A stretch of 64,000 nucleotides of DNA. Origin: a virus. The position numbers and the translations under genes were made by a program. How positions within the stretch are numbered: position 1 is the stretch's first letter; each line of letters opens with the position of its first letter. The notes beneath the pieces were generated by a model. It was not told the origin of the DNA. It saw only the letters and a list, made by a program, of their open reading frames with translations, and searched no databases. Below are positions 6,134 to 10,678 of the stretch, in pieces. The stretch is taken from positions 1-64,000 of IMG/VR virus record IMGVR_UViG_3300043410_001789. One strand, written 5' to 3'.

Positions 6134-6966
6134 TAGCCTATCCTATTTACCCTAATGTTATACTTCTTGTTTTCATTTGAAAGTAGATCGATGTTAAACT
6201 TTACACTTGGGTCATATGACACATCGTCTGCGTTGTATGGTAGCCTACTAAGTGTCACTCCTTGGAGTGCATGGTCTCTTATAAATACCTGTGCCATCTC
6301 TGAATTACTATTAAGTTCATCTATCATTTGGTTGTACCCATGCTCCAAAGAATATGTTACATAAAGATTTTCTACATTTCTTTTTCTAGAGTCAGTATAT
6401 ATATTGGTATTAGCAGAATATATGTCTGATCTTTTTCTTACCAGCATTGTCATGTATTCTTCAAAACCATAGTATTTTATGTTGGTTGGCACGATTCCTG
6501 GGTCAATCATATTTTTGTCTATAAAGATAAATGCTCTATCGATCCATTGTGTCTTGGTACTTACTGAGCTTGGCTTATAGTTATGTGCAAAAGAAAATTC
6601 ATCTTTCTTAGAAAGACTTATGGGACCATTTCCAGAAATAACGGCATTATGTAATTTAGAAAGCTCTATTGTCTGAGTATCCCAGGAAGGAGAAAGAGTA
6701 ACATCATCTGAAAGAAATAGCACATATCTTGATTTTGATTCTTTTAAAAACTCACTATAAAATTTACCCACTCCATATTGGATATCCCACATAATATGTG
6801 TATAAAAAATATTGGGATTATCTTTAAACGCTACCGTTCTGTCTACTGGATTTTGATCATATATATAGATCTTAACAGCCAGATTTGCATTGCCAAGAAT
6901 GTTTAAGGCAATTGTTGGCAAAATCTTATTTTTATATGAATATAAAAAGACATCAATGCTTTCCAT
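6133..6966 (-). CDS. Glycosyltransferase (GT-A/GT2-like)
   Basis: IDVFLYSY start, YVLFLSDD (DxD-like), YYGFEE. Confidence 0.55.
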   Translation of the reverse strand: MESIDVFLYSYKNKILPTIALNILGNANLAVKIYIYDQNPVDRTVAFKDNPNIFYTHIMWDIQYGVGKFYSEFLKESKSRYVLFLSDDVTLSPSWDTQTIELSKLHNAVISGNGPISLSKKDEFSFAHNYKPSSVSTKTQWIDRAFIFIDKNMIDPGIVPTNIKYYGFEEYMTMLVRKRSDIYSANTNIYTDSRKRNVENLYVTYSLEHGYNQMIDELNSNSEMAQVFIRDHALQGVTLSRLPYNADDVSYDPSVKFNIDLLSNENKKYNIRVNRIG

Positions 6967-7699
6967 TGGATACTCCTAGAAAAAGTTTCTTAATCCATGT
7001 TGTCTTTTTATAATGACCATACATAGAGGACCTTCTGTTCTCTGCCAATAGTTCATGAAAGTCTAACGTTTCCTCTTTGTCGTCAAGCTCAAGCTCCCAG
7101 TTATCTCTCTTGAAAGGAATAATTTGAAATATTGGTGTGCCTTTTGGGATTATTCCACGAAAATTTCTTTTTAGAAAAAACGTTGTGAATACTGGTAATC
7201 CCCAGATATCGGATTCCACTATGCCAGACATTGTATAGAATGGCAGGTCATGCCTATTCATTGGGTGGGTGATCAGGATAGAGTATCCTGGTGGTGTTTC
7301 GTAATACCAGTTCATTCTCCATCCGTAGTGAATTGGGTGACAATTATCTGGCACTGGAAGATCTATCTTTGGCCTTTTGTCTACTAGCAATTTATCTATT
7401 CCCCAAGTTAGCACTGGCTTACCGTCCTTATCCAAGTCTACATGCAAATCATCTTCCAAGACATACATATATCCTGCTGTGAGGGCATCTAGAAAGGGTG
7501 GGCACATCTTAGTAAATACCGCTGCCGAGTCGCTGCCCACTGCGTTATTTGGATGAAGATGTTTTTCACTATTAGAATTTTCAAACTTAGATAGAGAAAC
7601 ATACCACTCTGGCACGTGCCTCGTAGCTGGTTCTGGTACAAGTAGATCTGAATATTCTGGGGAGGTGGGAACAAATTTTATTTTTAGGTGATCGCTCAC
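6953..7699 (-). CDS. Hypothetical protein, paralog 1 of a possibly dUTPase-fold phage family
   Basis: PEWY, TKMCPPFLDALTAGY, ETPPGYS, IIPKGTPIFQIIPFKR. Confidence 0.6.
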   Translation of the reverse strand: MSDHLKIKFVPTSPEYSDLLVPEPATRHVPEWYVSLSKFENSNSEKHLHPNNAVGSDSAAVFTKMCPPFLDALTAGYMYVLEDDLHVDLDKDGKPVLTWGIDKLLVDKRPKIDLPVPDNCHPIHYGWRMNWYYETPPGYSILITHPMNRHDLPFYTMSGIVESDIWGLPVFTTFFLKRNFRGIIPKGTPIFQIIPFKRDNWELELDDKEETLDFHELLAENRRSSMYGHYKKTTWIKKLFLGVSNGKH

Positions 7700-8415
7700 T
7701 TGTATTCTTTCATTACCCTAAACTTGTTTTTATAGGCATTGCTGAATACGCTTCTAAGCTTAAAACCCTGAGTCTTAACTCTTGGCATTGATATCTCTGC
7801 AGGAATTACTTCAGATTCCCAGGCTTCTCTCTTGAAAGGTATTAGTTGAATTATTGGTGTTCCCTGTTTAATTACTCCCTCAAAATCTTTTTCAACTAGG
7901 AAGGATAGGTGACCCTCAGATACAAAATTGTCAGTATCTATCAATCCAGCAAAAGCAAACAGTGGGCTAGGTCTATGTATTGGATTGATAAATAGTGTGC
8001 TATATCCTTCTGGAGTTTCAATAGACCAGAATGGTTGAATTCTTAACAACTGCTTGTGATATTTATTAAGATCAATAGGATATTCGCTATACTGCTCAAA
8101 GCTGTGTGTAGAGAATAGGTCTCCCTTAAATTCATTTAGTGGTCTAGGAATAGAGTATTCTAGCTTGTTGGGGTCTTTTGCGTTGACGTATATATCGCAC
8201 GGTGCTCCAAAGATATAGCCTGCAGTCATAGCATCAAATATTGGCATGCACTTCTTGATGGTAGTGCCAACGTTTCCCTGCTTATAGTCCGTGTGATCTT
8301 GATTTACTGCTGGTTGCTCACGATACCATTCTGGCATACTTTTGGTGGCTGGCTTGGGTGCATCTACAAAATGCGGTGTCTTATCTGAAAATGGGTGAAA
8401 CGATGCCTTTGGCAT
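7696..8415 (-). CDS. Hypothetical protein, paralog 2 of the same family
   Basis: PEWY, TIKKCMPIFDAMTAGY, ETPEGYS, VIKQGTPIIQLIPFKR. Confidence 0.6.
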   Translation of the reverse strand: MPKASFHPFSDKTPHFVDAPKPATKSMPEWYREQPAVNQDHTDYKQGNVGTTIKKCMPIFDAMTAGYIFGAPCDIYVNAKDPNKLEYSIPRPLNEFKGDLFSTHSFEQYSEYPIDLNKYHKQLLRIQPFWSIETPEGYSTLFINPIHRPSPLFAFAGLIDTDNFVSEGHLSFLVEKDFEGVIKQGTPIIQLIPFKREAWESEVIPAEISMPRVKTQGFKLRSVFSNAYKNKFRVMKEYK

Positions 8416-9049
8416 AAAAGCTCCTAACTCTTTCTTCTATTATAGCATTTGACTCTATGATCATGTCAAACATTGGCTCTCCTCTTTTAATTATACCCTG
8501 CTCTGAGTCCTTCATATGCTTGCCTATCTTTTTAAAATAGCATGCGACCATGGGAGGATGTATGGCATGTATGTCCTTTGGGATATAGTTAAAATTAGAA
8601 TTAAGAGGTATGGGCAATATGGCTGAACCAGGAACTGGAACATATTTAACCTTAGTAGGATAATCTAAAATCCAGGGCACATAGAATTTATAAATTTCCT
8701 CTGAGAAACAATCTGGGTGCTGATCAAACGGCATGGCTGTTCTATAGTACTGTCTGACCCAGGTTCTATCTATATTATAAAACCCTACATCTGCATTGTT
8801 AAGTATGTATATATCTGCCTGAGTTTTTTGTCTAAGCACTATTGAGGATTCTGAAATTGAAATAAGTTCTGGTGGTGGGTATAAATACTCTACATATTTA
8901 TTAATTGGCTTAATTATTGAGTCCCCAAATTTTTCTTTATTAATTTGATCAAATAGTACCCATCTGGCTGGAACCAAAGATTCTTCACATATCTTTATAA
9001 AGTCTGGATCTTTAGTTTTACTCCAGATATCACGATCAACTTCTTGCAT
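8381..9049 (-). CDS. Hypothetical protein, possible distant third paralog
   Basis: KFYVPW and C-terminal IIKRGEPMFDMI echo the two neighbours. Confidence 0.45.
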   Translation of the reverse strand: MQEVDRDIWSKTKDPDFIKICEESLVPARWVLFDQINKEKFGDSIIKPINKYVEYLYPPPELISISESSIVLRQKTQADIYILNNADVGFYNIDRTWVRQYYRTAMPFDQHPDCFSEEIYKFYVPWILDYPTKVKYVPVPGSAILPIPLNSNFNYIPKDIHAIHPPMVACYFKKIGKHMKDSEQGIIKRGEPMFDMIIESNAIIEERVRSFYAKGIVSPIFR

Positions 9050-9062
9050 AAAATTCTTTCCG

Positions 9063-9134
9063 AGCCTTCTGTCAGGATTGAACTGACGACCTACGCATTA
9101 CAAGTGCGTTGCTCTACCACTGAGCTAAGAAGGC
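9063..9134 (-). tRNA. tRNA-Thr(UGU)
   Basis: GCCTTCT/AGAAGGC acceptor, ACGCA-CTTGTAA-TGCGT anticodon arm, TTCAAT T-loop; no encoded CCA. Confidence 0.95.
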
Positions 9135-9300
9135 ATTTGCCAATCGTGCATCGCTGTTTCTACAGAATTCCTGCCATTGGCTGTTATACCTAGTGGGTTA
9201 GCAGAACAATCTCCATCGGGCTGAACCCCTTCGTATGATGCGTCCACATTGTAGATTTCGGTATAACAATCTCCACATAAGTTGTTCAGACTTATGCTTC
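9135..9300 (-). ncRNA. Candidate structured RNA A (inter-tRNA)
   Basis: Stems CATAAGT/ACTTATG, TGTTATACC/GGTATAACA, GCCAAT/ATTGGC; complementary loops CTGAAC/GTTCAG. Confidence 0.55.
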
Positions 9301-9304
9301 TGAG

Positions 9305-9378
9305 CGATCTGTATGGGACTTGAACCCACGACCCCCACCGTGACAGGGTGGTGCTCTAACCAACTGAGCTAACAGACC
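9305..9378 (-). tRNA. tRNA-Asp(GUC)
   Basis: GGTCTGT/ACAGATC acceptor, CCACC-CTGTCAC-GGTGG, TTCAAGT T-loop; no CCA. Confidence 0.95.
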
Positions 9379-9380
9379 AA

Positions 9381-9570
9381 ATGTGAGAAGGTGGATTGTC
9401 TATTACCACCAAGGAGAAGTCTAGATACCATTAGAGTACCGCCTTAGTCCTACCACAGTCTTGCTCCGCTAAGAGCAGGGACGCTAATCCCAACTGTGTG
9501 CCTTTCTCGTTCCATCTAGACAAGGAACTTCGTTCAGCCATTCTCCAGATCCCTCGTCAGGAATCTGTTT
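9381..9570 (-). ncRNA. Candidate structured RNA B (inter-tRNA)
   Basis: CAGATTCCT/AGGGATCTG, GTTCC/GGAAC, CACAGT/ACTGTG enclosing two hairpins with identical TTAGCG loops, GGTGG/CCACC; loop-loop TTGTCTA/TAGACAA. Confidence 0.65.
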
Positions 9571-9571
9571 G

Positions 9572-9642
9572 AGCGAATAGGGAGAATCGAACTCCCACCT
9601 TCTGCTTGGAAGGCAGAGGCACTACCATTATGCAACATTCGC
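9572..9642 (-). tRNA. tRNA-Gly(UCC)
   Basis: GCGAATG/TATTCGC acceptor, TCTGC-CTTCCAA-GCAGA, TTCGATT T-loop; no CCA. Confidence 0.95.
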
Positions 9643-9692
9643 ATTTACCTGCTTTTATCCATACCCAGGAGTGGTGCAGGTGGAACCATTAG

Positions 9693-9764
9693 CTGCCCCT
9701 GCTGGATTCGAACCAACAACCTTAGAGTTAACAGCTCTCTGCTCTGCCGTTGAGCTAAGGGGCA
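9693..9764 (-). tRNA. tRNA-Asn(GUU)
   Basis: TGCCCCT/AGGGGCA acceptor, loop CTGTTAA, TTCGAAT T-loop; no CCA. Confidence 0.93.
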
Positions 9765-9883
9765 AGGTGGTAGGAAACGACAACGCCTACCTCGTCAGAG
9801 TAATTACCTCACTCAGCACCGCACGTTATTATCTAGAATAATCTGCTGCGTACTCAGGTCATGTTCTCTATTTATTTGTAAAT

Positions 9884-10678
9884 CTATTGTAGCACGTTCA
9901 CAAACTTAGCGTCAAGCGTTCCAGAAACAAATTTTGCAGCAACTGCAACGTTTCCTGCTGACGTAGTATTTGGAATTAGTCCAAGAATTGGTGACTTATA
10001 AGAATATACTGATGCTGAGGCAAAGTAGTCCGTACTGGCATCTGCAGCATATGAGCTTACAACCACACCCAGCTTATTGAGAGATCCAACACTAACTGAG
10101 TTTGTCTCCAAAATACATGCTGGATAACTAATCTTTGTTCCTTGTGTGTTGCCAGTAGCGACAAATACTGGGATTCCTAGTGACTTAAGGTTAGCAATTT
10201 GACTACGAATAGTTGCATCTGCTTTAGCAACACCACCATATGGTGCAGTATTTACGCTTGCAGGAGTACATCCAGAAGTTCCATTAAAGTAACGTGAAAT
10301 GGCTACAGCACCAACTGATGAAGAATGAGAGGATACCCAATTCAATGCATCAATAAAGTTTCCTGCGTTTACATCACTTACAGACTTTGCACTTGGAAAT
10401 CCAGCCCTCAATGCAATAATTGATAGTCCAGGATTTTGCTTCTTTGCAACCTCCACCATGGCATCGCCATGATTAATATTGTCGGATAGGCTTGCTGGGA
10501 TAGTCTTAACCACGTCTGTACATGGCTTATCTTCTAGAGTTACACAAGACACATTCCCACTAATCACACGTGAATCAAAATAGGAATCGATGATTACTAG
10601 TGATTTGGTTTCTGCCTGTGCTGGAGTTACTGAAATAGATGCAATCAATGCACCCAAAATAATTGCTGTTTTCTTCAT
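9884..10678 (-). CDS. Secreted subtilisin-like (S8) serine protease
   Basis: Signal peptide (MKK...PAQA); IIDS (Asp), NHG (His), ATGN (oxyanion Asn), NTTSAG (Ser motif variant). Confidence 0.75.
   Translation of the reverse strand: MKKTAIILGALIASISVTPAQAETKSLVIIDSYFDSRVISGNVSCVTLEDKPCTDVVKTIPASLSDNINHGDAMVEVAKKQNPGLSIIALRAGFPSAKSVSDVNAGNFIDALNWVSSHSSSVGAVAISRYFNGTSGCTPASVNTAPYGGVAKADATIRSQIANLKSLGIPVFVATGNTQGTKISYPACILETNSVSVGSLNKLGVVVSSYAADASTDYFASASVYSYKSPILGLIPNTTSAGNVAVAAKFVSGTLDAKFVNVLQ

Follow-up and report, generated by a model that had tools for sequence, protein, structure and literature searches.

We found that the structured RNA lying between the tRNA-Gly and tRNA-Asp genes of an uncultured phage is a manA RNA, real and conserved, and not a new kind of RNA. 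The window analysed here is the whole 64,000-nt stretch of an IMG/VR record, and we refer to the element between the two tRNA genes as the window RNA; helices P1 to P9 carry our own numbers, given in the 5′-to-3′ order of the Rfam structure. The Rfam family RF01745 (manA) matches positions 9380-9564 of the minus strand and scores 69.4 bits, where the gathering score is 55.2 (E 1.3e-15; cmscan, with repeat scans in agreement), and the match spans model positions 1-192 of 192. An Rfam 15 scan of the whole window gave five matches at gathering level, four tRNAs and manA, while BLASTN of the window RNA against 50,697 phage records returned no match at E 1e-5. A preliminary description of this DNA had left the RNA unrecognized and had made its novelty depend on a cmscan search against Rfam; since that search gave a full-length match to a characterized family above the curated threshold, the novelty is gone on the description's own terms. 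Its broader claim, a conserved, structured, multi-domain and discrete RNA framed by tRNAs, is borne out by the Rfam match, by covariation and by the recurrence of the tRNA frame. The reading that we favour, with moderate confidence, is that of a trimmed manA form which belongs to the tRNA array of an uncultured tailed phage from freshwater, is released from that array and makes a contact between loop L3 and the P8 domain.

All of the sequence features listed in the preliminary description are present on the minus strand (Table 1). The cmscan alignment places several diagnostic parts of manA in the window RNA, namely P1 with its GACG loop, the closing stem P2 and the CUGAA junction, and the terminal hairpin P9 with a GGUA...AAUCC loop is present as well; P1, P2, the junction and P9 are all conserved in relatives. 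Indeed, the GACG hairpin noted earlier is P1 itself, carrying the conserved loop of the family. P3, the P4 junction with P5 and P6, and P8 are likewise common to the window RNA and Rfam manA. Within the conserved junction, GCU pairs with GGC at 9502-9500 (P3a), a helix for which GGCAGAA/UUGCA and GACUGAA/GGUA are natural variants. The window RNA differs from Rfam manA, however, in that P4 encloses only P5 and P6 instead of the three hairpins P5, P6 and P7: model positions ~100-115 (P7) are deleted, and the score stays above threshold despite this loss. P7 is absent likewise from all 37 aligned relatives of the twin-loop form (carrying UUAGCG twice). Further differences are that loop L6 repeats the loop L5, which reads UUAGCG instead of the GUGGUG of marine-type manA, that the score is 69 bits compared with 165-185 for manA of the marine cyanophage type, and that the RNA is bordered directly by tRNA genes on either side and does not lie in a 5′ UTR.

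Table 1. Features of the window RNA and of the surrounding tRNA array, with positions in the window
Feature	Position	Strand	Basis
P1 hairpin, 9 bp (one G-U), CAGAUUCCU-GACG-AGGGAUCUG	9567-9546	-	cmscan; compensatory changes in 9/9 pairs
P2 5′ strand GAGAA, closing stem of the whole RNA	9541-9545	-	99.7% paired; 5/5 pairs compensatory
P2 3′ strand UUCUC	9385-9389	-	cmscan, covariation
Conserved junction UGGCUGAA	9533-9540	-	invariant in alignment A2
P3 hairpin GUUCC-UUGUCUAGAU-GGAAC	9528-9509	-	helix 95.7% paired
Loop L3 UUGUCUAGAU	9523-9514	-	loop of P3
P4 stem CACAGU/ACUGUG enclosing P5 and P6	9498-9493 with 9459-9454	-	cmscan, covariation
P5 hairpin GGGA-UUAGCG-UCCC	9491-9478 (loop 9487-9482)	-	cmscan, covariation
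P6 hairpin UGCUC-UUAGCG-GAGCA	9477-9462 (loop 9472-9467)	-	cmscan, covariation
P8 domain: outer stem AGGA/UCCU, inner hairpin GGUAC-UCUAAUG-GUAUC, 3′ internal loop	9412-9451	-	cmscan, MFE
P8 segment UAUCUAGAC, 9 bp with L3 including one G-U	9419-9427	-	covariation
AUCUAGAC within the P8 segment, 8 bp with GUCUAGAU	9426-9419	-	sequence
P9 hairpin GGUGG-UAAUAGACAAU-CCACC	9410-9390	-	helix 100% paired
Loop L9 UAAUAGACAAU, 7 nt complementary to L3	9405-9395	-	sequence
Two CUAA elements	9447-9444 and 9434-9431	-	sequence
tRNA-Asn	9692-9764	-	tRNA scan
tRNA-Gly(tcc), immediately upstream, with AAA between its 3′ end and P1	9571-9642	-	ARAGORN; Rfam tRNA, 64.9 bits
tRNA-Asp(gtc), starting 1 nt past the end of the Rfam match	9304-9378	-	ARAGORN; Rfam
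tRNA-Thr	9062-9134	-	tRNA scan
Promoter-like site TTGACG-18-TACAAT with upstream TG, ahead of the four-tRNA array	9886-9915	-	hint only

The fold itself was assessed with a covariance model (R1) built from ten close relatives and the structure of the window RNA, which gave 62 matches in the 66 sources searched and none in L161, L165, L489 (E 0.001) or L493. When the 62 matches were aligned to R1, 92.9% of cells formed a standard pair, as opposed to 61.3% in a shuffle control (none of 500 shuffles reached the observed value) and at most 48.2% when partners were slid by 1-3 columns; an alignment fitted to the tested structure favours that structure, and the margin is large. Compensatory changes were seen in 47 of the 51 pairs. 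The outer helix of P8 was 97.2% paired and the inner one, the weakest helix of all, 73.4%. Thus, helices P1-P6, P8 and P9 are conserved and rich in compensatory changes, and the comparison of homologues proposed in the preliminary description strongly supports the fold. A MAFFT alignment (A2) misplaced the register of P3, P4, P6 and P8, and its column counts were not used. Two smaller pairings suggested earlier fared less well. The CUAA elements exist, as do the two different P4-enclosed hairpins with the same UUAGCG loop that they were supposed to contact; the latter arrangement stands, but the CUAA elements are not kept in relatives (for example L285 and other sub-groups of A2) and were rejected as partners of the UUAG loops. 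Similarly, GGAGAA (9546-9541) and UUCUCC (9418-9413) are both present, but their long-range pairing does not hold up as a functional one: UUCUCC belongs to the outer stem of P8, and GAGAA covaries instead with UUCUC at 9389-9385.

A loose manA pattern found at least 118 viral stretches; RF01745 matches 52 of those 118 records at E ≤ 0.001 and 31 of them above the gathering score. Among the matches listed, these comprise the marine type (165-185 bits) and several divergent groups (22-78 bits). A pattern with two UUAGCG loops also found at least 118 stretches, 74 with the manA 3′ hairpin and 44 without it, and the 74 reduce to at least 37 distinct relatives, all on contigs of uncultured phages. 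The twin-loop form straddles the Rfam threshold: 47 of 48 records match RF01745 at E ≤ 0.001 (46-82 bits), 23 of the 48 lying above the gathering score. Because about half of it falls just below that threshold, the form goes unlabelled in phage genomes. Each of the seven records that are at least 90% complete holds exactly one match. Since a search of 185,579 prokaryote species genomes (one per species) with the twin-loop pattern returned a single stretch, in a Dysgonomonas metagenome-assembled genome, the form looks nearly confined to phage contigs; the stretch in question (L489 2264-2362, minus strand) may be fortuitous or represent a degenerate copy in a prophage. Two other patterns were set aside: an initial twin-loop pattern, which gave mostly chance matches among the matches listed, and GGCTGAA...AAGGCACACAG, which gave mostly unrelated coding matches, with L213 and L247 alone being useful.

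One large manA-like group (L130-L136, L158, L160, L162-L164, L168-L171) stays below the Rfam threshold at 34-48 bits; its last hairpin, GGGGG-UAGUCAAAGAAU-CCCCC, is invariant. As judged by eye, the loop of the second hairpin covaries with half of the P8 segment (CCAG/CUGG versus CAAG/CUUG), the remaining half being matched by the last loop (AGUCAA/UUGACU). Of the 20 members, none abuts a tRNA.

The preliminary description had proposed that L3 has two mutually exclusive partners, a 7-bp kissing loop (UUGUCUA/UAGACAA, with L9) and the 8-bp complement AUCUAGAC. Both complementarities are present; the latter is kept across lineages, the former in some only. This was established by an alignment-free test, in which the best duplex between the parts of one lineage was compared with duplexes made with the parts of foreign lineages. 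For L3 and P8 in 14 lineages, the median was -11.3 kcal/mol with the own partner and -5.8 kcal/mol with foreign ones (p 8.5e-5), and in nine of the 14 no foreign partner equalled the own one. For L3 and L9 the corresponding medians were -3.4 and -2.4 kcal/mol (p 0.03, although p 0.15 by helix length), and in five of 14 lineages, those of the window, L213, L457, L404 and L383, the own partner was the best or among the best. A general pairing of L9 with P8 was unsupported in the 14 twin-loop lineages (-3.7 versus -3.4 kcal/mol, p 0.24). A wider set for L3-P8 (82 sequences less 20 chance or coding matches, leaving 62 parsed, in which the sequence windows clipped the window RNA's own group) held 31 different versions of the helix, with medians of -11.2 and -5.7 kcal/mol (p 1.1e-10). 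Modelled as a helix, with crossing stems dropped, L3-P8 showed compensatory changes in 5/5 pairs and 92.8% pairing in 32 of 32 sources, in an alignment that was fitted to the tested pairing and so favours it. The helix is GUCUAGAUG/UAUCUAGAC in the window RNA, and natural variants include GUUUAGGUG/UACCUAAAC, GCCAGCAA/UUGCUGGC, AGUCAA/UUGACU, GCAUGU/ACAUGC and AGCUAC/GUAGUU.

Kissing between L3 and L9 is a more local affair. At one of its positions A-U is replaced by G-C in L213 and L507. L3, the P8 segment and L9 vary in concert in this lineage: in L507, L3 reads UCUG, the P8 segment CAGAC and L9 CAGGC, where the window RNA has UCUA, UAGAC and UAGAC. The GGCAA/UUGCC group shows a further compensatory difference, but L549 breaks the pairing and several groups lack it entirely. 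The conclusion that the P8 segment is the conserved partner of L3, with L3-L9 kept only in part of the family, is therefore strongly supported.

The twin UUAGCG loops called for a separate collection, as the first one had required UUAGCG twice and has no bearing on loop conservation. A pattern that left both loops free found 72 distinct stretches at 120 places (about 20 of the 72 being chance matches in coding DNA), of which 34 carry two UUAGCG loops, 11 one and 27 none. Real elements lacking two UUAGCG loops have CUAGCG, UUAGCA, GUAGCC, UUAGCU or GUAACG, and in some of them L6 is a GNRA tetraloop (GUAA, GCAA). As judged from these loop sequences, the twin loops are a shared motif near YUAGCR and no accident of the window copy, with L6 interchangeable with GNRA. 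Since one pentamer of manA RNA described in a preprint uses a GNRA loop-receptor contact of L6 (10.64898/2026.07.01.735769), it is a reasonable guess that L6 may serve in docking. In one relative (L300, on the minus strand of the locus and ending near 349) the loop equivalent to L3 contains UUAGCG as well (GUUAGCGA), with a complementary P8 segment (UCGCUAAC), so that this RNA has three UUAGCG loops and one matching receptor strand.

The same preprint reports cryo-EM structures of manA RNAs as RNA-only assemblies, namely pentamer-based decamers, an octamer and a 60-subunit cage (bioRxiv 10.64898/2026.07.01.735769, 1 July 2026), which other manA variants formed in vitro, at ~3 mg/mL RNA and 10 mM MgCl2 in the assembly step. 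In its available part, one pentamer is held by the intermolecular kissing loops L5-L7′ and L8-L9′, and the other by L5-L7′ and L3-L8′ together with the L6 contact mentioned above. We mapped these loop numbers onto the Rfam helices by loop complementarity: in the marine-type alignment L5 (GGUGGUG) is complementary to L7 (ACCA) and L8 (CUGUA) to L9 (UACAG), which fits the mapping without proving it. On this mapping, the complementarities among L3, the P8 region and L9 of the window RNA resemble the contacts L3-L8′ and L8-L9′ of the preprint. In contrast, L5-L7′, common to both pentamers described, cannot form in an RNA without P7, and the L3 of the window RNA, as far as its sequence tells, pairs with an internal-loop segment of P8 and matches L9 as well.

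The L3-P8 pairing may form within one molecule or between copies, as the sequence fits both. By analogy with the solved structures of the family, which are oligomers, the contact may serve to join copies in closed oligomers and not to fold a single copy; yet the loss of P7 removes the interface common to both pentamers, and we hold the chances of such linking to be about evenly balanced. The alternative that survives best is a free, monomeric, trans-acting RNA in which L3-P8 would be a pseudoknot within the molecule, giving shape to a surface that binds a protein or a small molecule, and in which the two YUAGCR loops would be a duplicated contact site, as in the decoy idea of the preliminary description. 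The covariation of L3 with P8 suits this arrangement as well as the intermolecular one, and L5 and L6 share a consensus (UUAGCG, CUAGCG, UUAGCA, GUAACG; L6 sometimes GNRA) even when the collection does not select for it. However, the RNA is not known to have a partner, an unsystematic look at the neighbourhood found no conserved protein gene, and the sole experimental structures of manA are, in the available part of the preprint, RNA-only oligomers; we regard the monomer as possible but rather unlikely. Since L3 cannot pair with both of its partners at once, one RNA could also toggle between a closed monomer, with L3 on its own L9, and an assembling form, with L3 on the P8 of a neighbour, an idea suggested by the overlapping complementarities that we consider distinctly doubtful.

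The favoured reading, a free RNA released from the array, draws on the genomic setting. The gap between tRNA-Gly and tRNA-Asp is 192 nt and that between tRNA-Asp and tRNA-Thr 169 nt. Among the 37 distinct twin-loop relatives (those among the matches listed; eight are near-identical copies of one lineage, so that the counts are not independent), a same-strand tRNA ends just before P1 in 17, typically followed by AAA and then P1, a tRNA starts within a few nt of the 3′ end in 12, a tRNA abuts either side in 21 and a same-strand tRNA lies within 1.5 kb in 30. The order Gly-manA-Asp is common to the window and its close relatives L292, L404 and L473. In the loose-pattern collection, 4 of 52 matches abut a tRNA, all of them among 25 copies of the marine type (among the matches listed). 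Two twin-loop relatives lie outside tRNA arrays: L327, with a terminator-like hairpin and a run of U downstream, and L354, with AAGGAG downstream and ATG 8 nt later.

Because the tRNA frame recurs in relatives, we infer, reasonably in our opinion, that tRNA processing would release the window RNA. The RNA would be co-transcribed with tRNA-Asn, -Gly, -Asp and -Thr; the promoter-like site ahead of the array belongs to a class that is not significant by count (six found, 6.7 expected in shuffles). An RNase P cut at the 5′ end of tRNA-Asp would generate the 3′ end of the window RNA and 3′ maturation of tRNA-Gly its 5′ end, the two cuts leaving a free RNA of about 190 nt. This RNA would then fold into the manA core, with L3-P8 as a loop-loop contact to which L3-L9 may contribute in the lineage of the window. 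The species 1 and 2 RNAs of T4, GOLLD and ROOL are further structured RNAs, other than tRNAs, that lie in phage tRNA regions and probably owe their release to such processing. The window RNA bears no known relation to them in sequence or structure, and no such Rfam match was found in 8800-10200 at E up to 1. Freshwater metatranscriptome contigs of relatives (88-99% likeness) cover the element in three of four RNA runs (X19, X20 and X24, from different studies), although such contigs cannot show ends, strand or level and may reflect DNA carry-over; one of them is 215 nt long, with a depth of 170 and adapter-like letters at its end.

The spacer between tRNA-Asp and tRNA-Thr (9135-9303, minus strand, 169 nt) contains GGAGAUUGUU twice, matches no Rfam family at E up to 1 and folds with z -1.52. 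In one relative, a metatranscriptome contig runs from one tRNA straight into the other, leaving out 168 nt, and the spacer is thus an insertion relative to that phage.

The setting also bears on the view that the RNA is a cis-acting riboswitch or leader, which would sense a metabolite and control the genes downstream of the tRNAs. These encode a 222-aa ORF without known family, two phrog_7084 proteins, a weak match to family-2 glycosyltransferases and a carbamoyltransferase, and sugar-modifying enzymes among them would suit such a role. Moreover, manA was originally rated a riboswitch candidate in the 5′ UTRs of genes for sugar, nucleotide and photosynthesis functions, in marine metagenomes, T4-like cyanophages and two gamma-proteobacteria (Weinberg et al. 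2010, PMC2864571; its figure includes a doubtful pseudoknot, and the seed structure was corrected in Rfam 14.3, PMC7779021), and the paper on S-CREM1 lists a manA copy in a cyanophage (PMC9964418). Among the twin-loop relatives, L354 directly precedes its Shine-Dalgarno-like site and ATG. The window RNA, however, is separated from the next ORF by two tRNAs and the 169-nt spacer, and at its 3′ end, where a tRNA follows after 1 nt, there is no overlapping terminator or ribosome-binding site. The conserved 3′ end is overlapped by no expression platform, the 21 tRNA-abutting relatives adjoin tRNAs and not ORFs, and L327 ends with its terminator-like hairpin. In the literature that we found there was no report of a manA ligand, of processing in vivo or of a P7-less form in tRNA arrays, though tRNA adjacency and variants lacking P7 may be treated in the supplements of the preprint and of Weinberg et al. 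Since the next genes are tRNAs and no ORF, the riboswitch reading is weak at the window, and we think it improbable here.

A self-cleaving or other ribozyme, for which structural complexity and a place among processed RNAs are the only arguments, is very improbable: no Rfam ribozyme matched 8800-10200 at E up to 1, and the literature found gives no hint of catalysis. As to a chance fold or a decayed tRNA spacer without function, the single-sequence energy is better than that of shuffled controls but modestly so (MFE -62.3 kcal/mol versus -53.2 ± 4.7, z -1.96, 9 of 200 shuffles as good), the MFE fold reproduces the Rfam manA architecture, and a full-length Rfam match and dozens of relatives with compensatory changes in every helix refute this idea, leaving it with virtually no probability.

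The source record has 72,863 bases, is estimated to be 66% complete and holds one manA copy. All of its large ORFs lie on the minus strand, and its genes are those of a tailed phage, with a portal, a head protease, a major head protein, a large DNA polymerase, a ribonucleotide reductase and a DnaB-like helicase. The capsid protein is nearest to those of Streptomyces phages such as BillNye and TunaTartare (~44% identity over 78% of its length), none of the 224 records matched covering 80% of the protein, and the phage is probably not a cyanophage. Most of the stretch is contained in DNA runs that carry a freshwater metagenome label, and two runs of one sample hold ~0.9 of its words. The phrog_7084 proteins are encoded by two adjacent paralogous ORFs (window 6953-8415, minus strand) of unknown function, with a weak DUF6065 match; together with the adjoining glycosyltransferase and carbamoyltransferase genes they look like a small sugar-modification cassette.

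A cultured counterpart was found in Streptomyces phage TunaTartare, whose host is a soil Streptomyces; here NC_070784.1 67816-67973 (L493 1501-1658) matches the full manA model at 45.6 bits (E 7.9e-12), below the gathering score. The match fills an unannotated 161-nt gap from tRNA-Gln (ending at 67811) to tRNA-Trp (starting at 67973), and the element starts with AAA, followed by P1 with a GACG loop. By eye, the loop of its second hairpin, CUAUG, has its complement, CAUAG, in a later loop. No manA match turned up in BillNye or Enygma, the remaining two of the three records of Streptomyces phages that were searched.

The RNA family to which the window RNA belongs has been an orphan since 2010, and the preprint now adds RNA-only cages. 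TunaTartare, as a cultured phage with a manA-like RNA in its tRNA array, provides a laboratory system, and the many natural compensatory variants of L3-P8 are ready-made mutants for assembly tests. The existence of a large P7-less form within phage tRNA arrays argues for a free, processed RNA over a leader. If the toggle proposed above were true, an RNA cage or scaffold that can be switched would reach the infected cell by way of phage tRNA arrays.
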